From positions 124,001 to 184,885 of the forward strand of contig MU005988.1 of assembly GCA_010093745.1 (NCBI GenBank): a stretch of DNA of 60,885 nucleotides. The letters are read 5' to 3'. Shown here in pieces: positions 1-55,441 of the stretch. Under the pieces are notes generated by a model, which worked only from the letters and a program-made list of their open reading frames with translations, had not been told where the DNA came from and did not search any database. Position 1 is the first letter of the stretch; each line of letters begins with the position of its first letter. A program made the translations under genes and the position numbers. This DNA is from Piedraia hortae CBS 480.64 (Eukaryota).

Positions 1-235
1 GCTGCCGCTTGTCGAACGCCCGATCGGGCCTCGGTCTGAGGTGCGCGCAACCGCTGGTAGGGGGACAGTGTACAGTTACTGCCGCGCCTCCTGGCGGAAT
101 GCGCAGGTTAGTCGCTGAATAAGATGCGCGGAGACAGTGCTAGCAACCGCCGTGTTGCGCACGACGACGAGCGAGAGACGTGCTGGTCACCGGTCGCGAT
201 CGCGTGGCGGTGAGAGGTGATGCTGTTGGAAAATA

Positions 236-760
236 CTGGATGCGTTAGCACAGTCAAGCCAAGTGATTTAGCGACAAAAGCCAGAGGAGCGGAGCGGGCA
301 ATATACCTAAAGCCGAGCGTGCAGTGAGCGAGGCAGCGTGTACTTCCACGTCGAGAGCTGTGTGCAGCGGCGGAAGCCTGTGGCAGAAAAGGATGAGTGC
401 CAAGAAAAAAGCGTGGTTTGCTTCGGATCCCGAACCCGTGGGATTTCCCGGTAGCGCACGGAGCTCCCGCCAAAATTCTGCAAGAATGAGTGCGGCGGGG
501 TTCGATGTGAGTGAGCAGGCCTTGTCCGTCGGCGCAACAGGCGCGGTGGTCACCACTGGGCTGGCGGACGAGAGAGCGGTAGCAAGGAGAATGCAGCGAG
601 TTTGAGAGGGGTCGAGGGAGGGGGTTTGTGGTTGGAGGTTTTGTGTGGAGGTGGAGGAGAGAAAGTGCGGCGTCGGGGAAAGATTTGCGTCACTCGGCTT
701 TCTCCTTGAGGCCGCGCTAAAATTTTTAACGTCCGCACCCACCGCACACCCAACTATATA
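236..760 (-). promoter_or_regulatory. Probable promoter and 5' UTR (with intron 236-306) of a minus-strand gene whose CDS lies left of the window
   Basis: On the minus strand: TATATA at 755-760, then a CT-rich tract (~600-700), then donor GTATAT at 306 with branch/acceptor TGCTAACGCATCCAG ending at 236. No recognisable CDS. Confidence 0.35.
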
Positions 761-810
761 TGATGCTACATTACATTAACTCGTAACCCAACTAGTCTCG
801 TTAATCAAGA

Positions 811-2779
811 CTATTTAGCGTAGTCCCCTGCCGTGGTTGTTGTGTATTTGTCGTCGCGGCCCTCGGACGACACCCGAGTCGATCCCGCTGCCTCACCGCT
901 CCCATTCGGCTCGAAAATGTTCGAGTCAGCAGGTGCGAAGAGGGGGCCAGGGAAAGTTCTGTAGTCCATGGGTGCGTAAAAGGGCCCAATGAAATCTCTG
1001 TAGCGAATTGGGGCATACAGTGGACCGGTGGAAGCCCCGTAGTCAGCCGGTGCATGAACAAGCCTTCCATCCCACCGCCATTGAGCGAGTTTCGCCTGGA
1101 TTCTGGCCATCAACTTGACCGTCTTCGTGAGAGAGCGACCGTACTGAAAGGCAAGTAAGCAGAAGCAGCGCACCAGCACAGCTGCAATGAACTGCTGTGC
1201 CTCTAGGTCCTCGCCCTCTCCTGGTCCTGCTGCAGCGCCAGCTACTAGGCATATCCAGAGCAGCACGCCGGTGAGCTTTCCCCAGCAATCAGTCATATCG
1301 GTCCGTTTCAGTGCGTCTCGAATCTTAACATGTGCAGTAGTGTGTGCGTCTCCCTCGTCCTGCAACCGTATAAGTGCAGCCGCTCTCGAGAAGGGTACTT
1401 TGTTGGCCAGGGCATACGCATAGACGTTTGCTGCCAGACGAACAGCTTCGTAGGTGTAGCGCTCCCTAGGGTCTGAAAAGTCAAGGTCGTCGCATGGGGG
1501 AGCTGTGAAGATGTCATGAGAAATGGAGTCGATCTCTCCTTGCAAAGAAGAGCTCTCTGACGACGGGCTCAACTGCTGACAGAATGAGTTTGTGAGCCTC
1601 CGGCAATGCTCAAGTAGCTGGTAGAGCCGTCCACGCGGTTGCAGAGTCTTTGCAACAAGATCATACCCCGTAATTGGGTAGCAAAGGGGTGACTCGGGCA
1701 GCTGAGGCTCCAGTCTGAGAGTTTGGCAAACGCGTTGGGCATGTTGCATAACCTGACCGTCCGGGAAGTCTTCGAGCAAAGTTGCAATCATGAACACCAT
1801 GCTGGCGCCAGGTTAGTGTACGCGGGCTCAGAAACCGTTCCAGCCCACTTACCAAGTGGCGACCACGGCTATGGATCCATTGGCACCCAGACGCTGCAGT
1901 CCTCCCCTTTGCTGGATCAATTTGAGCAACCCGTTCCGATGCACCAGGATCGCACGTTCATCGCAGCTCATGATTTCCGATGCGAGAAGATGAATCACCG
2001 ATATTACTGTGGCGTCAGCTAATCGCAAACGTTCGTCGTCAAGACACTCCTGGATCATCCTGAGCACTTCACCTCTCACTAGCACCCTCTCGCGTGATTC
2101 GGTCCTAGGCGGCCAGCCAACAGTGCCGAATTCTCGACTCATAATGTCGTTGTGCGAGGTTGAAATGGTCAACGTACTGAGAAACGCGGGACGAGACGTA
2201 AGCAACGTAGGCACCCACATTTGGCCCATTGCTCTGCTGCCAAACTGCTGGCTACCTGGACACTGAGCGTCAGACCATGCTCTAGTCTCGGTTATGTTAC
2301 TCACAGATCCATTTCAATCGATCAACCGGAATAGACTGGTTGTCAAAGTCTGGCCACGAGTCAAATGGATTGATCGACCCCCTTGGCCTCATAAATATGC
2401 GAGGTATGTCACGGAGATTCTTTTCGAGGTAGCCAGAGATACGAGAGCGGCCGCTTACGCCCTCAACCAGTGTGGAGAGCTCTTGCTCTGGGCGTGAGAG
2501 CCTTGGTATAACTCTGCGTTCACGCTGGCCCTCGTCAGAGTCCTCAGCCTGCAATGTAGACCGGTCGGCAGATGTCTGCTCTTGCGAGGATGGCGAGGGT
2601 GCCGGGGCACTGGATGGATCGACTGAAACTGCCGGCAGAGGAGCAGTATATCTGGGCAACCTGCCAGTTGTGCGACTGGGCCGCTGGGATCTCCTGATAT
2701 AATTCCTCATCGCTTGTTGGCGGACTACCGTCCTTGTTCCCGGATCATCGGATTGACTGTCGACGAAAACATATTCCAT
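811..2779 (-). CDS. Fungal-specific transcription-factor-like protein, ~622 aa; exons 2779-2305, 2255-1853, 1801-811
   Basis: Three ORFs join in frame through canonical introns (GTGAGT..CAG; GTAAGT..CTAAC..CAG). The N-terminus (EYVFVD..VRQQAMRNY), GSINPFD and HRNGLLKLIQQRGGL are typical of the fungal-TF middle-homology-like family. No Zn2Cys6 cluster is visible. Confidence 0.7.
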
Positions 2780-3779
2780 TTCACGCTGGCAGGGTCTGGA
2801 ACTGTTTTTAGGAGAGCTGGTGTTTTGGCCTGATTGGGTTCAGCACTCTTGGTACGCTGGAGCGATGGATCCTACCCTTTCCCAGAGTTAGACACTGAAT
2901 AAAAGAAATTTGGGTTGATGTTGGGTCCTGCGGCGTCTTGCTGCGTTCAACAATGGGATTATGAGCCCACGCTTGTTGGCTCAACATGCTTGTTCAATGC
3001 CCTTTCAAGAAAGAAGGAATAGGCTGATTCGAGCAATGTGCATCGGTTATATATGGCTGGCAACGAGATGTAGGGTGCAAGAGGATTGGGAAAAGACGGG
3101 GAAACTTTCAAAGAGCGCTCGAGCTGAGAAAGTGGCACAGTAGCGATAGTTCCAAGAGAGGGATGTGGCAGGGTCGTGGGAGCGTTGGCGGTTAAACGAT
3201 AACGGTGGCCCATTCTACGGCGAAGGCGCTTGATCCCACAAGGCATCAGCAAGGCGCCCCTACCGCTCAGCCGCGGGCGCTTAAACTGGTTACTTCGCTG
3301 TATTGACTGTTCCATCTGTGTTTTGCAGCGCTCACTTGGCCTATTGACTCCGCACAAGGCTGCAGATCTGGGGCTAAAACGCCCAAACGATCCAGCGTGG
3401 CTGGCCGGTAACGCCCGTAACGGTTTCTTATCCTTCGGCCAGCCGGCTACGTAAACTGAGCTTGTCAAGGCAGTGAAATTTGTATGGTGACGAATCTCGG
3501 CATGCAAACGTAGCATTTCGCCCTGCCGAATCCTTACCGGTGATGGTAAGCCAGGGCATCGGTGGTGACCAACCAACAGATTTTTATGTCGATGAGGCTG
3601 GATGGTAGGTACCTGGGCCACGGGTTGCAGACGATCCCGCCCACCTATGAAGCCCACATCGGCTTTTGCACTGCCACTGTTCTGCACCCCAGACAATTAT
3701 TGTGAATGACGTCATGTACATGTCACACGGGGATGATGAGATGAGGTGATCGGCGACGGCCGAGGGCGAGTATGGTCCC

Positions 3780-6700
3780 TCAACCTAATGATCGAGAAGA
3801 CAGACCGCCGGCATTCCCGCTTTTTCTATTGCGCAACCTTGCAGCTACCAAAGCTTCAGAAAGTGTGCGTCCGCTCGGGTCGATGCCCGCGAGGAACCGA
3901 GCGAGTTCGGAGCACAGGTCCCATTGCTGGCTCTCGGAAGCTTGCGAAAACAGGCTTGCGAACTCATGTAGCTGGATTTCCTCCTCGAAAGAGTGTAGCA
4001 CTAGTAGATAGCCCGCGGCGGTCTTTAGCTTGCCCGCCGACATGGAGTCTTCAAACAACTGTCGCACCGGTGGTAGATATGAGAAGAGGGTTCTCCAACT
4101 GCGCAATTCCGTCTTGCGGGTGCAATTGACAATGATGTCCAGGTAGGCGGGGAACGAAGAGAGGAATGAGTTGACCGACGGTAGCAGGGCCGTCTCGGGC
4201 GGTGACGGCGGCCTATCAACCTCACTGTCTAGTACCTCGTGCAGCAAAACTTCGAGGGCGTGAGCAAAGTAGGGTAGATGCTGGTAGGAGCCAGCGAGAT
4301 GCAGGGCTGCCGGTGAGTTGTACTCTGACAGGTGGTGTCGAAGTAGCTGAGGCAAGAAGAGTTCAGTCCTCGCCTCCAGTCGGAAAAGGGAAAGGTTGAC
4401 ATCTTTGCGCCAGACAAGGTCGGCTTCGAGGCCATGTATGACACCTCTGGATATCAACGGCGCGACTGGGTAGAAATCCAAGGGCATCCTTACGGTTGGT
4501 GGGAGATCTCGCCCCAGCTCCACTGGGGCGCTGGCCAGCACATCCTGGACTTCAGGCCAAACGTGATATGCCTCACCGTCGAAGAACCACAGCGAATCGC
4601 GAAGGCTGTGCCCTATTGACTCTGGGAAACAGCTGATCAGGCTTGCCAGTATGGGCGGGCCTTTGAGGGCGGCAACGGCAGCTGGCTGATCGCGCATGAA
4701 AATATAGTGTTCAACATCGTGTGCTATGACCCGCATATTGTACTTGAGCTCGTCGTGTTCGTTTGTGCTTGGCTGCAGCAGAACGAGCTTACCATCGACA
4801 AGAAACAGCACCGATGCTTTTGCTACATCGTGGGATGGATCACCATGCTCCAGCTGGGCTTCGGGCAGGATCCAGCTGATTGCTCGCACACGGGGCGGTG
4901 CACGAACAATGCCATGGAAGCCGATCTGGCCGACTTGGACGAGTCTGACAGACTGGTCGTTCCTAACGATAATATAGTGTAAGAGCAGGTTATCATGGGT
5001 ATATACCAATAACGATTCCGTGCCAGACGTCGTTGTCAAAATGGCCGGAGCAGGGAGACGTTCTGTATGCACGGGGCGTTCGAGAGGTTTGTCGCGCACA
5101 AAGACTCGTAGCTGATATCGACCTCTGCATTCAACGGCCGCAAACAAGAGGTTATGGTGCCAGCACATGCCGCCTCGCACAGCAAAGCTTTGTTCAGCGT
5201 CCGGGTCATCGAACTGCTTCCAACGGCCACTCGCCACACTGTAATGGGCAATGCCGCGCCTGCCAGCTACCGCAATGTAGTTGGCGTTGGCGGAGATGGC
5301 AGCCAACTTGATGGGCCAGCAGGTGACGAGATAGCTGTTGGGAACCTGGATCGTCTGCCATAGAGGTGCATCTGCGGCAACCGAGGTCAGATCCAGCCCA
5401 TCATGCCCCCTATAAACCACGACAGCATCACTAGAATGGAGCAACCCCTGAGAAACGTTTGCAGGGAGAAGGTTGGCAACGCACGCATTGCGGGCCATTT
5501 CAAGCACCCACAAGAAATCGGCGCCAGGTGGCAAGATGAGTAACTCACAGCCGCCCGCCATCCACAGGGCGTTCGAAACACCATTGAGATATCGCTCACT
5601 GTTGGGCTCGGCGATGTTGTGGCCATCCGCTGAGGTCGCTCCCAGCTTCCCATAGACGCTCCAAAGCGCCCAGCCATGTTCAAAACCTGAGAACAAGCAG
5701 TGCCCGTCCGGTGAGTAGCTGAGATGGGTTACGGACCCGAAATGAGATGCCGATGGCGGCAGCGTCAGCGAGCGTGACAGTGGAATATTTCCAGTGTAAT
5801 CCTTTACAGTATACAATTCAATGGTATTGTTTGCACAGGCAATGGCAATGAGCGAGAAACGTGCGTTGATGGCAACTTTGACCGCTCCCGCGCCGCCCAC
5901 GGTAGGGTTTTTGAAACAAAAGCCTTGAATATTGCCGACAGCCATGTCAGAAGGGGAGCGAGGCGATTGTTTTTGTCGCTGAACGGCAAACGCCCGACCA
6001 TCGCCGGTAAGCCAGCAGGACAGGTTCATTGGCTTGTCGTGAGTCATTTCTGTGACGGGTTCAGCAGATTGTAGCCAGGAAAGGTTATCCAACGTCTCCA
6101 TGGGTACTTGAGGAGAGTTGAGTCCAGCTGCCCACGGAATGCATCGTATATTGGTAGGGTTTGCACAAGAGATGATTAACCCATCATCTAGAGCGATGGC
6201 CTTGGTAATCTCGTTGCCGATGCGAACGACGGCACCAAACTGCATAACGAAGTTCCTGATTCCATCCTGCTCACCGGGACCCGACCCTGGGTTTGCCGTT
6301 TCCGGTCTTCTGAAAGAAGAGTAGTTTGAGCTGTCCTTTCTCAAGTGTTTTGCGGTGAACGGTGACAACTGGGGGTGATAGACACGGACCTGACCATCCG
6401 CTTCCAGGGTGTAAGTGATGAGGTAGCCAAGTGCAGTTTGCACCATGATCGTGCGGCCGTCTGGGCGCAGCAACAGGGCTGAACTGGGCCCGTGAACGTT
6501 CAACGATCGCTTGGACCGCACAACAGCCGCAAGGGCTACAGTCGGTTTGGTCTGCCATACAGCGAGGGTAGATCTGGTCGTGGTTGCAAACATGTTTCCA
6601 CCACGCCAGATTTCTACAGCAACGACAACGTTTGAATCGTCATCTCTGGTGGCCTGGCTGGCCTCTGCTTCGACCGGGGAGCTTCTCACGCTTTCCCCGG

Positions 6701-32428: not shown

Positions 32429-32547
32429 AGTTGGAGGATGTGTCACGTGATGACCATGTACAACGTCCTTTCATGTATGCAGCACAAATAACAATGCTAT
32501 TATTCATGTCTTAGTGTACTCGCACTATCAGTTCGTCCCCTTTAACT
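32429..32547 (+). mobile_element. Family A short element (AGTT...AACT), copy 1
   Basis: 119 bp, homologous to 45816-45934, 46146/51257 and 53711-53798. Flanks CATTC/CATCC (TSD, one mismatch). Confidence 0.8.
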
Positions 32548-32683: not shown

Positions 32684-32917
32684 TAGCACGGTGAGTCCTC
32701 TGTCAGACGAGGTAGATCGGTGGTAGTCAGAACGTCCGAGGCTTCGCAGGGTTTTCTGCTTCATAGAGGAGTTTTCCCGTTACGAGGTCACGATATTGCG
32801 TGGTCCCGGCGGATGCGGTCTGGCCAACTCTGGATCTGTGGAGGACGTTGCGTTAGCTCTCAACACGTAGAGACGTACACAGTTACACGCACCTTTTGAC
32901 CCAGACTTCACGTCTTA
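32684..32917 (+). mobile_element. Family F solo-LTR-like element (TAGC...CTTA), copy 1
   Basis: High identity to the reverse complements of 35989-36215 and 55208-55441. Flanks CCCTC/CCCCC. Confidence 0.8.
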
Positions 32918-34318: not shown

Positions 34319-34690
34319 TGTAGCGATAGTTCTCTCCTGGATGGGAGTGCGCAGCGGCCCTAACTAAGAGGACGTAGCGATAGACGGAGGTCAACGACAG
34401 GGATAGGAAAGATGCAGGTGGGTACGAGTCCATACCAGTGTCGATGTGACAGTGTGAATGCCTATATATGTCTACGAGGAGACGTCAGAATAAATATTCT
34501 GTACCGGTGGGTCGGTGACATCACGTCATACACTAGCAGGACGCATTCGCCATGTCAAATATGACATGACCCTGAGGAGAAATCTCTTTTAGGGCAGAAA
34601 CCTAGGGTGCCGCTGGTAGTGTAGGAGGTATCTGCTGACTTGCTATGCCAGTGACCCGCATACGCGTAGCGGCGATGCTTGAATCCAACA
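34319..34690. mobile_element. Solo LTR, family C (372 bp, TGTAGCG...TCCAACA)
   Basis: TG..CA ends and perfect TSD TGATA (34314-34318 / 34691-34695). Homologous to 59867-60224 and to the split copy 46244-46499 + 50950-51061. Confidence 0.88.
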
Positions 34691-35988: not shown

Positions 35989-36215
35989 TAAGACGTGAAA
36001 TCTGGACGAAAAGGTGTAACTCTGTGCTTCTCTACGTGCTGAGAGCTAACGCAACGTCCACAGATCCAGAGTTGGCCAGACCGCATCCGCCGGGACCACG
36101 CAATATCGTGACCTCGTAACGGGAAAACTCCTCTATGAAGCAGAAAGCCCTGCGAAGCCTCGGACGTTCTGACTACCACCGATCTACCTCGTCTGACACA
36201 GGGCTCACCGTGCTA
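35989..36215 (-). mobile_element. Family F element, copy 2
   Basis: Inverted copy of 32684-32917; perfect TSD GCTTT (35984-35988 / 36216-36220). Confidence 0.88.
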
Positions 36216-39890: not shown

Positions 39891-40295
39891 NNNNNNNNNN
39901 NNNNNNNNNNNNNNNNNNNNNNNNNNNNNNNNNNNNNNNNNNNNNNNNNNNNNNNNNNNNNNNNNNNNNNNNNNNNNNNNNNNNNNNNNNNNNNNNNNNN
40001 NNNNNNNNNNNNNNNNNNNNNNNNNNNNNNNNNNNNNNNNNNNNNNNNNNNNNNNNNNNNNNNNNNNNNNNNNNNNNNNNNNNNNNNNNNNNNNNNNNNN
40101 NNNNNNNNNNNNNNNNNNNNNNNNNNNNNNNNNNNNNNNNNNNNNNNNNNNNNNNNNNNNNNNNNNNNNNNNNNNNNNNNNNNNNNNNNNNNNNNNNNNN
40201 NNNNNNNNNNNNNNNNNNNNNNNNNNNNNNNNNNNNNNNNNNNNNNNNNNNNNNNNNNNNNNNNNNNNNNNNNNNNNNNNNNNNNNNNNNNNNNN
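39891..40295. other. Assembly gap (405 N)
   Basis: Run of N characters. Confidence 1.
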
Positions 40296-45815: not shown

Positions 45816-45934
45816 CATCAAAGGGAACGAACTGATAGTGTGAGTACACTAAGACGTGAATAATTGTATAGTTAGGTATGCTGCATACAGGAGGGGACGT
45901 TGTTTATGGTCATCACGTGACACATCCTTCAACT
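45816..45934 (-). mobile_element. Family A element, copy 2
   Basis: Reverse-complement copy, 119 bp; TSD TTTTC (45811-45815 / 45935-45939); left terminus degenerate. Confidence 0.8.
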
Positions 45935-46499
45935 TTTTCTCGTGCTTCCCAAAATACACGCGGTATGACGACCGCATGATTGTGGGAAAATGAGGGACAA
46001 TGACGTTGACTATGAGAAGAGAGTTAACCAAAGGGTATAAAGTGAATTCACATGTTTTAGCGGTATTACACTGCCATCTCAGCCCCTCTCCGTCCTCGTA
46101 TGGTGAAAGCCCTGCACGCATTCCCTCGCATAGCCGCGTAGGTACAGTTGAAGGATATGTCACATGATGACCATGAAAAACGTTCCCTCATGTATGCAGT
46201 ATATATGACTATACTGTTCTAATAAGCAGCGACACCTCATAGGTCTTGGATTCAAGCATCGCCGCTATCGCGTATGCGGGGCACTTGCATAGCAGGTCAG
46301 CGATACCTCCTACACTACCAGCTGCACCCTAGGTTTTTTACTTGACAGAGTTTTTCCCTCAGTCTCATGTCATATGTAACATTGCGAATGGGCCCTGCTA
46401 GTGTACGACGTGAAGTCACCGGCCCACTGGTGCAGAATTTTTATTCTGAACGTCCCCTCATTTTGAGATATATAGTCATTCACACTGTCATATCAACAC

Positions 46500-49400
46500 T
46501 GTTGTGCAGGTCGCCACGGGGCGACCCGCAGGTGATGACCCACATCCCTGGCCAGGGTTCGAGTACTCAGAGATTTTCTGGTGTAGCTCTAGATACGCGT
46601 GTATACTGACACACCTGTGAGGTGCCGCTGCTTATTAGAACAGGTTATGAGCCCGGTGCTGTAGCACCATAAGTAGCAACGTGTCCGCAAGCCTTGCGAA
46701 GGCCAACGCAGCGATGGAACGCGACGATGAGGCCGTGCTGAAGAGGCGCATTGCGCCTGAGCTCACGGCTGGCAATCACCGCATTTGGTTCCACACAATC
46801 GAAGAGGCAATGGAAGCTAAGGGTATCGAGCAGGTCATAGGCGTTGACAGCCTGGAAACACTTATTGAGAAATTGCAAATTGAGGAAGCAGACGACAAGG
46901 CTGCGGCCGATGTCAAGCAAAAGGTTAAGCAGATGGACGCTAAGGCACGCCAGCTGATGCGTCGGCACCTTTCCGATTACGACTTGGAACTGCTCGACGA
47001 TTACAAGACGTCACGAGGGTGGTGGCAGCTCCTGCGTAAGAAGTACGGGCGGAAGACCATGGCTCAGAATCACGAAGCCATGGTTGCATATGTTAACTTT
47101 AAGATGACTCCGCAGATGAGCGTCGACGAGGGCTGGGCGACGCTTCGCTCGCTAGCCAAAGACGCTGAAGGCGTGGATGGCTTTAAGCATTCTGTTGCCT
47201 CAAGGGCTCGCCGTCTCATAGAAGCACTCCCATCGGAGTGTGATGCCACGAAAGATGTGTTGCGTGCCAGTGACTACGGCGCAGACGTAATTCTGGAGAA
47301 GATCAAGGAAAAGGAGGCAACGCTCAAGACCTCGAACGAGGAAGCCCTTGCTGCTCGGGTGTCGCGTGGCAAAGCCAAGCAGAAGTCCGAACCCCGCCGG
47401 CGTGGACGTGCTAAGCCTACTAAACAGCCCAACAATGCAAAGGTTTCGTGTTTCTTATGTGGCGAGCCCTCATCTTTTCCGCGATTGTGACTACCTCTCA
47501 CTGGCTAAGGATCTCATTGCTGAACACGCTGCGGGTGGAAAAGGTCGCAAGAAGAAAGCATCGCGAGCATACACTGCAGGCTCAGACGACGAGGAGCCAG
47601 AAACGGCCCATATTACGAAGGATGACATTTGTAAGGTCCCCCCCAACCAATGGGTCGCAGATACCGGCGCCTCATCTAACATGTCTGATGCTTACCATTT
47701 GTTCAGAAGTATGCGTCCTGTCAAGCGGCGTTGGATCTTGGTTGGTGGGGGGGAGCTAAGCTCGCGGACTATGTGCGATGTCATTATTTCGGGTGCCAAT
47801 GGTGGAAAGATGCTTTTGAAAGACGTATACCATGTCCCAAACCTCGGTGTGAACCTTATATCAGCCAGTAAACTGTGCAACTCCGGACATCGTGGTGCAT
47901 TTGACTCAGTACGATTGTCCCTTCTCGATGACCATGGACAACTGTTGTTGCAAGCTACTAAACAGGGAGGTGTTTACATCGTTGACTGGATCTCACAGTG
48001 TTCGCCTCGTGCCTTTTGCGCCAATGAAGATGTAGTCATGGGCAATGACAGTTCAACTGCAGACGTTTCGGCGGTAGACAATCCAGCTGCAGATGTTTCA
48101 ACCGCAGATGAATCAACTGCAGACGAGCAAGACTGCGAAGGCTCTGGAACGTCTGCGCAGCATTTGAATGAATCTGGCCAGGCAAAAAGACGTCACTATG
48201 AAAAATGGCACCGTCGTCTCGCTCACCTGGGCTCCAGCATACTTGGTAAACTCCACAAAATTGCCGACATCAAGAAGCCAATCTGTATTCCAAATGGCGA
48301 CGAGTGCGAACCCTGTCAGACCTGCATGTTGACAAAGGCCACAAACAGGACATCGAAAGCCCTTAGTGAGCGTCGGAGTGACGTTCTCGATCTGGTTCCG
48401 ATTGATCTCGGAGGCCTTGAAGAGCCCTCGATCAATGGGAATCGGCACTTCGTTCAAATAGTTGACAACTACTCCCGGAAGATCTGCGTAATTCCATTGC
48501 CAAGCCGCGAAGCTGCTGCCGCTACCTTGACCACATGGCGAAAATCGGTTGAATTAGAGACGTCTAGGCGTCTGAAAGCAGTCCGAAGCGACAATGCAAC
48601 AGAATTGGTTAAGTGGTTCAACGATTGGAAGACTAACAATGGTGTGCGCATGGAGCCGACAGTTCCCTATACATCCAACCAGAATGGGATTGCTGAACGT
48701 GCGATTCAAACGACGTGGGCGAATGTGCGTGCCATGTTAAAAGACAGTGGCCTCCCAAATGCACTGTGGGACTATGCTGCCCAAGTCCAAGCTTACGTTG
48801 GGAACCGGACTACGAATGGTCCAATTTCCAAAACAACAGGTCTAGAGATCAGCCCCGAGGAGGCATACTTAGGCCGGCGTCCCTCTCTTGAGCACCTTCG
48901 CCGCTTTGGTTGTGTTTGTTATTCATATGTTAACCCTAAATCTCTTCCCGGACGAAAAGGTAAACTGATGGATCGTGCTCGTCCTACAATTCTGATTGGA
49001 TTTAACGAAGCCACTGATCATCAGTATCTTGTTTGGGCTCCGGATAGGAAGGCGGCAATTCGAACTTCCGTTGTAAAGTGGAACGAATGGAAAAATTGGA
49101 CGGACGTGAAGCTCCCGCTAAATCTGCCATTGTCAACTAATGAAGTGCCAGTAAGGAATCCCAGGGGACGGTCTCGAATGGTGCCATCAGACAACCTCTT
49201 GGAGAGCAAGATCCCCGATGACGGCCCTGTCGATAGCCAACAGTTTGAGCCTGCAAACGAGCCGAATGAGGCGCCGGTGGTGCAGGAGATATCCGTGGAT
49301 CGCGAGTCTGAAACTTCGCGTGAGGAGCCCATAGTGTACTGTGGTAGCCCACCGACAAATGCATGCGATGCCAAGCACATCACCATTACTGATCCCACAG

Positions 49401-50949
49401 AGGTCGATAAGTTTCGTCGAGTCACACGAAGCATGACTGGGAAGCGACGGTGATCTGTCCACGACGATGATGATCTCGCCTCCAAAAGGTTGCGTTCGGC
49501 ACTTGCACTTGCCGCCTTACATCGCAATGGTGCTCGTCAGAGTTCGTCAGAAGCCCAAGCAGATGACACGCAAGATACTTCGTGCCGCATTCCCACCACA
49601 TAAACAGGCAGTCACCGATCCTGTTCACGGCAAGCGCTGGAAAGCGGCCATCTCTTCTGAGATCCAATCACTGGAAGAAAAGGGAACATGGAATATTATT
49701 AATCGCCCGCCTGGAGTCAACATTGTCACTAGCAAATGGGTCTTCAGTTTGAAAACAGATGTGCAGGGGAAGATTGATTGTTATAAAGCTCGACTCGTGG
49801 CTAGAGGCTTCACGCAGAAGCATGGCCTGGACTACTTCCGCAACTTTGCGCCAACGGTGCGCCCAGACACCTGGAGAACCTATAGGCCATTGGCGCCATG
49901 GAAGACTTGGAAAGCCACCAGATTGACGTCGAGACAGCATTTATCAATTCGAAACTCAAGGAGAGCATCTTCATGCATCCTCCAGACGGCCTGAAGATTG
50001 GCGAGGACCAAGTTTTGGAGCTCAAGCATAGCCTTTATGGCCTAAACAGGCGGCTTATGAGTGGTTCAAGACATGCCGTGCCGTCCTCCTCAAGATAGGT
50101 TTCGTTGCTGGGCACTCCGATCCTTGCCTCTTCGTGCATAAGCCGCGTAAACTGATCATGATGTTGTATGTTGACGATATGACAATCATGTCCTCTTCTC
50201 TGGACGAGGTACAGTGGTTCAAAGTCAAATTTGGTAGCCACTTCAAGGTTAATGATTTGGGGGAGATTGGGAAAATCCTTGGCATTCGTGTCACCAGGAA
50301 TGGAGCAAAACGTACGATCACGCTGGACCAGGGGGAGTATGTCCAAAAGATCACGCAGGATCATAAGATGGAGCAAGGAAGTTGACGAGAAGCACGGCTG
50401 GCTCCTCTGAATGGTTATGGCAAGGTCATGCCAACAACCGACGATGATGAACCCACAGACAGGATGATGTGCATGAGGGGGGTTGGTAGTCTGATGCATG
50501 CAAGCGTACAGACGCGACCTGACATTGCATTTGCCACCGGTAAACTCAATCAGTTCTCGGGCGCTCCAACTCGACGCCACGAGCAAGGACTAGAGGAAGT
50601 TCTTCGCTACCTCAGGCAAACCAGCGATGATGGAATCACCTACGGAAGATCACCAGGAAAGCTGGTTGGTTCTCTGACTCTCACTTTGCCGCGTACAAAG
50701 CCACTCGAAAATCGACTACCGGCACAGTATGAATGCTCGGCGGCGGGGCCGTAGCTTGGAGAGGCAAGAAGCAACACTGCACGGCTACCCCCACTTGCGA
50801 AGCCGGAACTGCTCGCACGGCGAGGGGAAGTATTGTGCAGGTCGCCACGGAGCGATCCGCAAATGATGAACCACGTCCCTGACCAAAGCTCGAGTACTCG
50901 GAATTTTTCTTGTGTAGCTCTAGATACTTGTATATACAGATAAACCTGT
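46500..50949 (+). mobile_element. Ty1/Copia LTR retrotransposon (family B), defective: 5' LTR 46500-46642, PBS 46643-46656, gag-PR-IN-RT ~46681-50810, PPT ~50822-50830, rearranged 3' LTR from 50831
   Basis: Gag zinc knuckle CFLC..H..C (frameshifted), protease WVADTGASSNM, GAG-pre WHRRLAH, integrase VDNYSR / RSDNATE / QNGIAER, RT KARLVARGF and LYVDDM. Several frameshifts and stops; RNase H is truncated after (S)TCEA. Confidence 0.95.
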
Positions 50950-51061
50950 TGAAGCGATTTGCCTCGCGTGGGTGAGAGTGCGTAGCGGCCCGAACAGGAC
51001 GAGGCGATAGACGGAAACAAGGTTAGTCGGATGCAGATGGATTTGAGTCAATATTAGTGTC

Positions 51062-51202
51062 TGTTCTATTAAGCAGCGGCACCTCACAGGCGTGTCAATA
51101 TACACGCATATCTCGAGCTACAAGAAAACTTCTGAGTACTCGAACCCTGGATTGGAATTTAAGTCATCACCTGCGGATCGCTCCTTGGCGACCTGCACAA
51201 CA
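51062..51202 (-). mobile_element. Family B LTR, inverted full copy (141 bp)
   Basis: Reverse complement of 46500-46642; followed by TATAC (51203-51207), which matches TATAC at 46210-46214. Confidence 0.9.
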
Positions 51203-51572
51203 TATACAATTATACAAGTCTTAGTGTACTCACAATATTAGTTAGTTCCCTTCAACAGGTACCAAAGTACTTTCCCTTTCCATCCGTACCTCTGCAGCCG
51301 AGTTTTCCTTGCCTTCCCTTACGCCTTCTCGCCGAGCGAACCCCGTGAGGACAGATGAGCGGACGGCAAATTCGACGATGGGGTTCTCTACCGACGTCTC
51401 CTCCGTGGTGGGAGAGCTCCATCTACAAAACCATCTGGGAGCCAAACAGCATCTGGCCCACGCCAGGCACGCATGCGTGCTTGGAACGCACCCGCGTCGC
51501 AGCTCGACGTCCACCCTCTGACACGCCTACCAGGCTGGTACGCAGCGCGGTTAGCCGCTGAAGCGGACGGTA

Positions 51573-51966
51573 TGTACGAGTGAGAACGATGGATGGAGGG
51601 CAGAAACGTGTGTGCAAGGGAATACAAGTGTATCTACGGGAGAACGTCGGAGAATATATCCTGGGCCGGTAGGCCAGTGCATAGCCTTGTGTGAAGGGTC
51701 ATCAATCGTATGACCGCAAGCGGGTGGTCATTCATACGTGCAGGAAGACCGTCGGCATGCGGTCTTGCCCCAAGACTCACCTCATACATCCCGGCCACAA
51801 ATGCATTGAAGCACCGGAACTACCAGGGATGCGGCAGCTCTTGGCTCTGTCAGTGCAACTTGCCAAGCTGCCCTACGCTTTTTCATTGCCATACCTCTCG
51901 CATGAACTGCCAAACTATGACCAGCTGTGCGCACATATGGACTTAACTGGTCCGCACGCTCGTACA
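51573..51966. mobile_element. Probable solo LTR (394 bp)
   Basis: Perfect 8-bp terminal inverted repeat TGTACGAG/CTCGTACA. Flanks CGGTA/AGGCA match at only 3 of 5 positions; single copy in the window. Confidence 0.55.
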
Positions 51967-52469
51967 AGGCATATACGCGATTGCACACGCTAGTTATATA
52001 TCCTCTTTGATCTTTGGTCAGGTGCAAGGACAATGACGGAGTTGTTCTCTGGAATGAAGTTATGGGAAACCATGACGGTTTCCACTATCTGATGCTGTCG
52101 GTTCCAGTTCGAATCTTTGAAGCAATCCTGCGCAATCGCTTGTTGCCGGTTGTTGCAGAAGGAGTCTTTTGTAGAAAATTGACTACAGTGCCTGCGGGAT
52201 TGAGATCAAAGGCACTGAATGTCGATACGAACGTAGCATCGAATGGAAAATAAAACTTGCCCCAATATTACGCGGAGACGATGGCAGGCAGTGCGAGGGT
52301 TTTCTTAGCGTCATGTCATGTTCGAAGCATCAGAGGATTGCTGGATTTTTAATGTACGCATGTTGACAGTTGACGCCTAACTTTGCTTCGCACTCACGTT
52401 TACTTTGTCATTCAATACACCTTACGCTGTAAGAGATTGAACCAAGAGCAGACATGGCATTGGTAAAGT

Positions 52470-55207: not shown

Positions 55208-55441
55208 AAAGTTGTGAAGTCTGGGTGAAACGATGTGTGTAGCTGTGTACGTCTCTACGTCCTGAGAGCCAACGCAATGTCCTCTACAGACCCAGTTGGT
55301 TAGGCCACATATGCCGAGACCATGCGATAACGTGACCTCGTCACAGGGGAAACCTCCTCTATGAGGCAGAAAACTCTGCGAAGCCTCGGGTGTTCTGACT
55401 ACCACCGACCTACCTCATCTGACACAGGGCTCACCATGCTA
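55208..55441 (-). mobile_element. Family F element, copy 3 (more diverged)
   Basis: Homologous to 35989-36215; perfect TSD GGTTT (55203-55207 / 55442-55446). Confidence 0.85.

Follow-up and report, generated by a model that had tools for sequence, protein, structure and literature searches.

The DNA analysed here, called the window below, is a stretch of 60,885 nucleotides from Piedraia hortae CBS 480.64 (contig MU005988.1, positions 124,001 to 184,885; G000:C32:124001-184885), part of an assembly of 16.9 Mb in 132 contigs. Positions 46141-51262 of the window hold four nested retrotransposon insertions whose right inner end was inverted after the last insertion. From the outside inwards the nest consists of a solo long terminal repeat (LTR) of family A, a minus-strand solo LTR of family B, a solo LTR of family C and a decayed Copia element of family B. 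The flip is very probably the outcome of a homology-directed exchange between the 3' LTR of this Copia and the older, inverted B LTR, an inversion type known for its exchanged target-site duplications (TSDs). The components of the nest are the following, strand being given for those that have one:

46141-46145: left TSD of A, GGTAC, identical to the 5-mer at 51258-51262
46146-46209, plus strand: left part of solo LTR A (119-bp family with AG...CT ends), from alignment to intact copies
46210-46214: left TSD of the old B LTR, TATAC; the A junction matches 31/35 family copies
46215-46238, minus strand: last 24 nt of the old B LTR
46239-46243: left TSD of C, ATAGG, with its partner at 50945-50949 in reverse complement (4/5)
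46244-46494, plus strand: first 251 nt of solo LTR C, matching at 85% the copy at 34319-34684
46495-46499: left TSD of Copia, AACAC, with its partner at 51057-51061 in reverse complement (4/5)
46500-46642, plus strand: Copia 5' LTR, family B, 143 bp, TG...CA ends, at most 97% identical to other genomic copies
46643-50830, plus strand: Copia internal region with GGTTATGAG, resembling a primer-binding site, then gag, protease-type beta-barrel, pre-integrase, integrase, SH3, reverse transcriptase and purine tract
50831-50949, plus strand: positions 1-119 of a B LTR, left inverted-repeat arm, presumed chimera of the Copia 3' LTR and old B
50945-50949: right TSD of C, formed by the last 5 nt of the left arm
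50950-51056, minus strand: last 107 nt of C, inverted, from alignment and junction test
51057-51061, minus strand: right TSD of Copia, inverted, reading GTGTC on the plus strand
51062-51202, minus strand: full B LTR of 141 bp, right arm, presumed reciprocal chimera
51203-51207: right TSD of old B, TATAC
51208-51257, plus strand: right part of solo LTR A, ending CAACA where the family has AACT
51258-51262: right TSD of A, GGTAC, identical to 46141-46145

An earlier interpretation made from the letters alone (the sequence-only reading) had proposed this four-level nest, and all its coordinates hold, the TSDs and the alignment to intact family copies being in agreement. The families of the nest make 5-bp target duplications. 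Both outer pairs, GGTAC of A and TATAC of old B, match 5/5. The inner pairs agree only in reverse complement, ATAGG of C against ACAGG and AACAC of Copia against GACAC, so that the description of every TSD pair as intact applies to the outer two, while the inner two match 4/5 with one transition each. Pairs of this quality are common here: in family B, 38/57 copies have a 5/5 duplication and 11/57 a 4/5 one. The chance that a random pair of 5-mers matches at 4/5 or better is 0.017, and 0.0003 for both inner pairs jointly.

Stepwise rejoining of A, B and C, a check set beforehand, regains the family junctions after the flip. At a threshold of at least 75%, the 45-nt C junction matches 28/34 family copies with the right side reverse-complemented and 0/34 as assembled. 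The B junction matches 55/57 copies when flipped; its as-assembled control is uninformative, since the right arm itself holds that stretch. With the 31/35 copies matched at the A junction, all three LTRs become contiguous, and the halves of C and old B rejoin only with the right side flipped. It was an overstatement that the flip restores all four units exactly: beyond the two transitions in the TSDs, LTR C is now 363 bp long, starts with TC and ends with TTCA, the plus-strand LTR at 50831 begins with TA, and the Copia reading frames are broken by stops and frameshifts.

The flip carries Copia's own right TSD and is therefore younger than the last insertion. Homologous B copies stand in opposite orientation at its breakpoints (50831-50949, plus; 51062-51202, minus), and the fold z of these inverted-repeat arms is -10.4. 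The inversion ends fall in opposite B sequence in register, and 50831-51202 is therefore the outer limit of the flipped DNA and 50950-51085 its minimum; positions 50831 and 51202, previously given as exact breakpoints, mark that limit only. Exchanged TSDs, found here with 4/5 in each inner pair and backed by the C junction, are a stated mark of ectopic recombination (PMC2775673). In yeast, inverted repeats give both conversions and inversions, by annealing or by long-tract synthesis at stalled forks (PMC8748988). At the locus described here, four integrase-type insertions with 5-bp duplications each lie within the previous one: A, then minus-strand B, then C, then the full family-B Copia. From what is established for such elements, A, old B and C would be solo LTRs left by LTR-LTR recombination. 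With the last insertion, the Copia 3' LTR would have come to face positions 1-119 of the old B LTR in opposite orientation, 112 bp lying between the two. Homology-directed exchange between these arms, either a crossover or a long-tract template switch at a stalled fork, would then have flipped the spacer and exchanged the TSDs, at a point within LTR positions 1-119 and probably before position 70.

The flip of this locus is not unique, and LTR-mediated flips recur in the genome. The wider survey covered C22:1-202,000 plus loci retrieved by searches, which are ranked by similarity and form a non-random sample. First-look candidates genome-wide number 111 for family B, 107 for family A and 389 for family C, which are lower bounds and not copy numbers. 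Unmatched flanks (at most 2 of 5) are found in 16/42 full C copies and 6/58 B copies; family C seems to recombine often between loci. Among the 120 pairs that the 16 unmatched C copies form, two show a reciprocal TSD swap, for which the chance is ~3.5e-5 per pair; both are inverted, each lies on one contig, and each swap matches 5/5 and 4/5. In the C10 pair (L173 5789-6888) the C LTRs are 392 bp apart and 95.8% identical (rank 3 of 861 pairs), with a common tract of 100 bp against a family median of 32. In the C109 pair (L114 1501-1962, L137 1501-1912), ~1.8 kb apart, the identical run of 218 bp is the longest of the 861 pairs, and the flip has moved apart the two halves of a B LTR whose TSD is AAGCC, just as happened in the nest. 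At C19 (L171 7149-10000) the integrase-reverse transcriptase-RNase H block of a family-A Copia lies between inverted C copies and its frame continues only in reverse; here the TSD evidence comes from one side only, since a single TSD fits (4/5) and its counterpart does not. Six close inverted pairs were found outside the nest: two swap, C19 does so partially, and three (L178 and L175 of family B, L177 of family C) show no swap. The L177 pair (4260-6382, on C12), 1.4 kb apart, has the highest identity of the 861 pairs (96.7%) and one copy with unmatched flanks; its high identity without a swap suggests conversion alone. No cross-locus swap was found among the six A and six B copies with unmatched flanks (15 pairs each). 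With the nest included, there are four flip cases in ~0.9 Mb of loci, a figure from which the ranking of the sample allows no genome-wide rate to be derived.

Inverted repeats bound the flipped block, and an assembler might have turned it over. The sequence-only reading had named reads in the unflipped order as the finding that would speak for this. One sequencing run (X1) contains the stretch; its contigs are a separate assembly, possibly of the same sample, and the results from it rest on 8 of 297 contig pieces listed. Record 2 covers 45905-46325 and record 7 covers 49727-51202, both with 0 differences. Together they cross six junctions (46145/46, 46214/15, 46243/44, 50830/31, 50949/50 and 51061/62), the last three being crossed by record 7, and the X1 joints listed show no strand change at the block edges. 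These contigs carry the assembled orientation without differences, and an artefact is therefore unlikely; we rate it as highly improbable. Record 7 does depart from the window at 51202, continuing for 1542 other letters, and the scaffold has a gap at 39891-40295. The departure is nevertheless explained by a B copy (C22:33861-33890) with the exact terminal 30-mer and a common prefix of 31 nt, which makes a graph branch, and TATAC and the remainder of A follow 51202 as expected. The longest exact match between the arms, 15 bp, is also too short to confuse a short-read graph.

Several observations weigh against the reading of the locus as a flip by exchange between the B arms. On the assembly side, none of the 8 of 297 X1 pieces listed bridges 51202/51203 or 46499/46500, X1 may be the source sample of the window, and contigs drop rare variants. 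The arms themselves have an identity of 76%, whereas none of the 1540 other B-B pairs drops below 81.5% over that span. Their longest exact run is the one of 15 bp, and they lack a conversion tract such as those of C10 and C109. In a comparison with 55 other copies, no rare allele was found to be common to the 5' LTR and either arm, and the arms are therefore only presumed to be chimeric. The best split of the arms, at positions 51-55, has a permutation p of 0.40, which leaves the exchange point unmappable. The subfamily markers conflict: the left arm carries 70G together with 102A, a combination present in 9/10 copies with 70G and absent from the 5' LTR, which places the exchange before 70, and the right arm has a 2-bp deletion at 81-82, present in 18-19/55 copies and absent from the 5' LTR, which places it after 82. 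Low arm identity and the lack of a conversion tract, together with a cluster of changes in the right arm (positions 41-52), could instead point to a non-homologous or microhomology event (break and rejoining, hairpin fold-back or aberrant integration) made without recombination proteins acting on B-B homology. Against this, the arms have kept their register and no junction has lost or gained bases, an outcome seldom expected from a random break, and other flips in the genome have long shared tracts; a non-homologous or microhomology origin is improbable. Recombination between the Copia 3' LTR and the inverted old B LTR, as originally proposed, is supported by the TSDs, the family junction test and the orientation of the X1 contigs.

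The divergence of the nest is uneven. Rare substitutions, defined as those carried by less than 20% of the other copies, number 5/143 in the B 5' LTR, 15/119 in the left arm and 14/143 in the right arm (family mean 4.6), 16/252 in the left and 18/107 in the right part of C (p 0.03), and 5/69 and 7/50 in the left and right parts of A. The right end of the nest is ~2.6-fold more substituted than the left; the stratified odds ratio is 2.6-2.7, with p between 1e-4 and 3e-4 wherever the exchange point is placed. Well-kept copies are over-represented in the comparison sets, so that contrasts with the family are inflated, whereas a comparison of left and right inside a single element is unaffected. 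The excess on both arms over the 5' LTR, and in right C over left C, could be accounted for if the inverted repeat with its 112-bp loop were itself mutagenic, the changes accumulated on both arms having then locked the flip. This explanation is doubtful. The right part of A, outside the block, is also high, a family-E piece at 51557-51788 has the top load of 25 copies (28/228, though it was itself the query), and the arms of C10 and C109 are not over-diverged. The excess extends beyond the block, and a hairpin effect is therefore no more likely than a regional cause. Repeat-induced point mutation was rejected as the cause of the excess: over 43-57 kb TpA/ApT is 0.42-0.90 and (CpA+TpG)/(ApC+GpT) is 1.0-1.45, with no strong CpA-to-TpA excess. 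This absence of a dinucleotide shift, and of a marked GC skew, speaks against the hairpin as well; no strand-skew island is evident at the nest. Three tandem changes, GG>AA on the plus strand and hence CC>TT when read from the minus strand, occur in the arms, at 50862-50863, 50886-50887 and 51161-51162, and are too few to interpret.

The sequence-only reading had also implied that successive hits on such small targets are rare. Depth-4 chains of any families are roughly expected 0.014, 0.064 and 1.6 times per genome at nesting rates of 2.1%, 3.5% and 10%. The implied rarity is weaker than suggested, the expectation being ~0.01-0.06 under even rates and ~1.6 at the local rate of A in C, and LTR-mediated flips recur at other loci. 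The nest could also stem from integrases with a preference for LTRs already present, or for the chromatin on them, and not from chance in a crowded patch: 4/39 A copies lie inside C LTRs against a C coverage of ~0.9% (p 0.0003, or 0.004 counting two same-site cases once), and three of these four, like the nest Copia, are at C positions ~220-256. Over all families outside the nest, though, 5/141 copies are nested in another LTR, while LTRs make up 2.1% of C22:1-202,000 (p 0.18), and none of 58 B copies tested lies inside another LTR besides the nest's own two. Selection against insertions in a gene-dense genome would yield the same pattern, and the samples are ranked by similarity and not random. 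We hold targeting to be rather unlikely; the nest is uncommon, yet attainable in a locally crowded patch. In two C LTRs that differ in locus and in flanks (L085 1501-1619, L090 1497-1613), an A copy occupies the same 5-bp target, CATAT, ~5 bp from the target of the nest Copia, which may be a hot spot or a copied composite LTR.

The innermost element has the gag-protease-integrase-reverse transcriptase order and the RVT_2-type reverse transcriptase of Ty1/Copia, its internal domains matching PF14223, PF22936, PF13976, PF00665, PF25597 and PF07727 in Pfam. No Pfam match to RNase H was obtained after the reverse transcriptase, where two pieces of the disrupted 3' part were tried, each in a single frame. 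The element has two direct LTRs with TG...CA ends, the 3' one rearranged by the flip, a primer site, a purine tract and a 5-bp TSD. Family B LTRs begin with TGTT in 53/57 copies and end with AACA in 52/57. The motif GGTTATGAG follows the 5' LTR here and in the only other internal copy found, on C3; it is a putative primer-binding site. The C3 copy is 96% identical over 1-3140, and no divergence gradient was found over 46500-49782, where it ends (Spearman p 0.87). Order of domains, short LTRs, 5-bp TSD and the TG...CA ends of families B and C resemble those of Ty1/Copia elements of filamentous ascomycetes, while GGTTATGAG differs from the FunCo1 primer-binding site and from the GalEa hairpin (PMC5445492).

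Family A departs from the canonical TG...CA. Its copies start with AG in 37/39 and end with CT in 36/39 cases, with a TSD directly outside these ends at 5/5 in 21/39 and 4/5 in 8/39; examples are 46146-51257 (interrupted by the nest), 45816-45934 and 32429-32547 in the window, L171 6442-6560 and L183 1510-1626. Two copies, on C19 (L171) and C26 (L183), are followed by GGTTAT.AG, a common leader (85%) and Copia coding sequence. The block at L171 encodes RVT_2 (E 1.7e-36) and SH3, and L183 has a reverse transcriptase stretch 86% identical to it. The primer-site-like motif after these two copies is the same as that of family B. An LTR is thus joined to a primer site and to Copia coding sequence as in Ty1/Copia, and the ends argue for a non-canonical Copia, not against Copia. 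No 3' A LTR was found within the stretch examined at either locus, that of L183 not having been extended, nor did any copy with an LTR at each end turn up. A supposed primer site after the A copy on C10 (GGTTATG) was set aside, as it is more likely a TSD (4/5). The repeats of another family, D (~234 bp), end in TAGC...CTTA with 5-bp TSDs, TA starting 6/6 and ending 5/6 copies; they lie at 32684-32917, 35989-36215 and 55214-55441 of the window and at L175 4691-4927, and no internal region was found for them.

AG...CT-like ends are found in insect gypsy-group elements. The non-TGCA ends listed for plant Copia in two papers are TGCT, TGGA, TACA, TGTA, TGGT, TACT, TATA, TGTT and TCCA, the first T being described as invariable (10.1101/137141; PMC9804982). 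Family A shares with these elements the short LTR, the 5-bp TSD, the Copia internal region and ends other than TG...CA, and differs from them in starting with A; the TA...TA of family D is a type listed there. Fungal Copia ends are given as TG...CA (PMC5445492; PMC4139406). Neither this locus nor a Copia with AG...CT ends came up in the literature covered, outside which lie supplementary end-type tables, most subscription journals and Repbase. PMC2582038 came up as a candidate and proved irrelevant, its letters belonging to a primer and a TSD. Whether family A is a Copia LTR integrating with 5'-AG...CT-3' ends, a type undescribed for Copia and one in which integrase works without the usual terminal CA, is in our judgement evenly balanced.

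The nest sits within a repeat-rich patch, at ~45.8-55.9 kb of a window whose gene content is fungal-looking, and is an inert record of events in this transposon-rich patch, with no sign of function. A family-E repeat in 51557-52040 ends early at 51788, where another repeat starts, probably a further insertion in the same patch. The gap at 39891-40295 comprises 405 N and falls in a putative alpha-amylase-like reading frame, named from its translation. Record 8 of X1 (51257-51784, depth 610) joins 75 letters resembling the left flank of A directly to the right GGTAC, as in an empty site; 27/30 letters shown agree with 46110-46139 in a comparison by eye, and no source for this contig was found in the assembly. 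A fifth, outer repeat layer at which it hinted is rejected for now, both flanks being single in the assembly. X1 was likewise dismissed as a second genotype: 40/40 listed differences (27 more exist) are alleles of the C3 paralog, which makes its contigs mosaic.

The flip of the nest is a tidy instance of an already known type of rearrangement. It resembles Galileo and inversion 2z3 of Drosophila buzzatii in the opposite homologous copies at the breakpoints, the exchanged TSDs and the empty-site versions that hold one copy of each target. It differs in having 143-bp LTRs instead of a DNA transposon, a 112-bp spacer instead of megabases, and arms whose chimerism is not demonstrable (PMC2775673). 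In budding yeast (PMC8748988) and at CEN4/CEN5 of Candida albicans (PMC12047244), DNA between inverted repeats is likewise inverted with or without conversion, and the long common tracts of C10 and C109 resemble such recombination. Those cases involve long repeats that were assayed or polymorphic, whereas the arms here are short and known from one fixed assembly. Nested LTR retrotransposons of plants also insert within older elements and have their order read from TSDs; LTRs themselves are said to be seldom targeted there (PMC6911290), whereas at this locus of a 17-Mb fungal genome three successive hits all fell in LTR sequence.

What the locus cleanly documents is that DNA in a natural fungal genome can be inverted by repeats no longer than 119-143 bp, with 112 bp between them. 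Exchanged TSDs offer a simple genome-wide count of such flips, which could be used to ask whether genes get moved. The one-sided excess of substitutions carries a warning for dating: taken at face value, the 12% divergence between the LTRs would make this Copia seem far too old, the two internal copies differing by 3.6%. A wider reading, in which an AG...CT Copia family A goes together with recurrent conversion between short inverted LTRs, and flips of the DNA between them, in a compact fungal genome, is one on which we are equally divided. For annotation, family A is of importance because tools that look for TG...CA would overlook it; it also bears on the way in which Copia integrases recognise the ends of LTRs.

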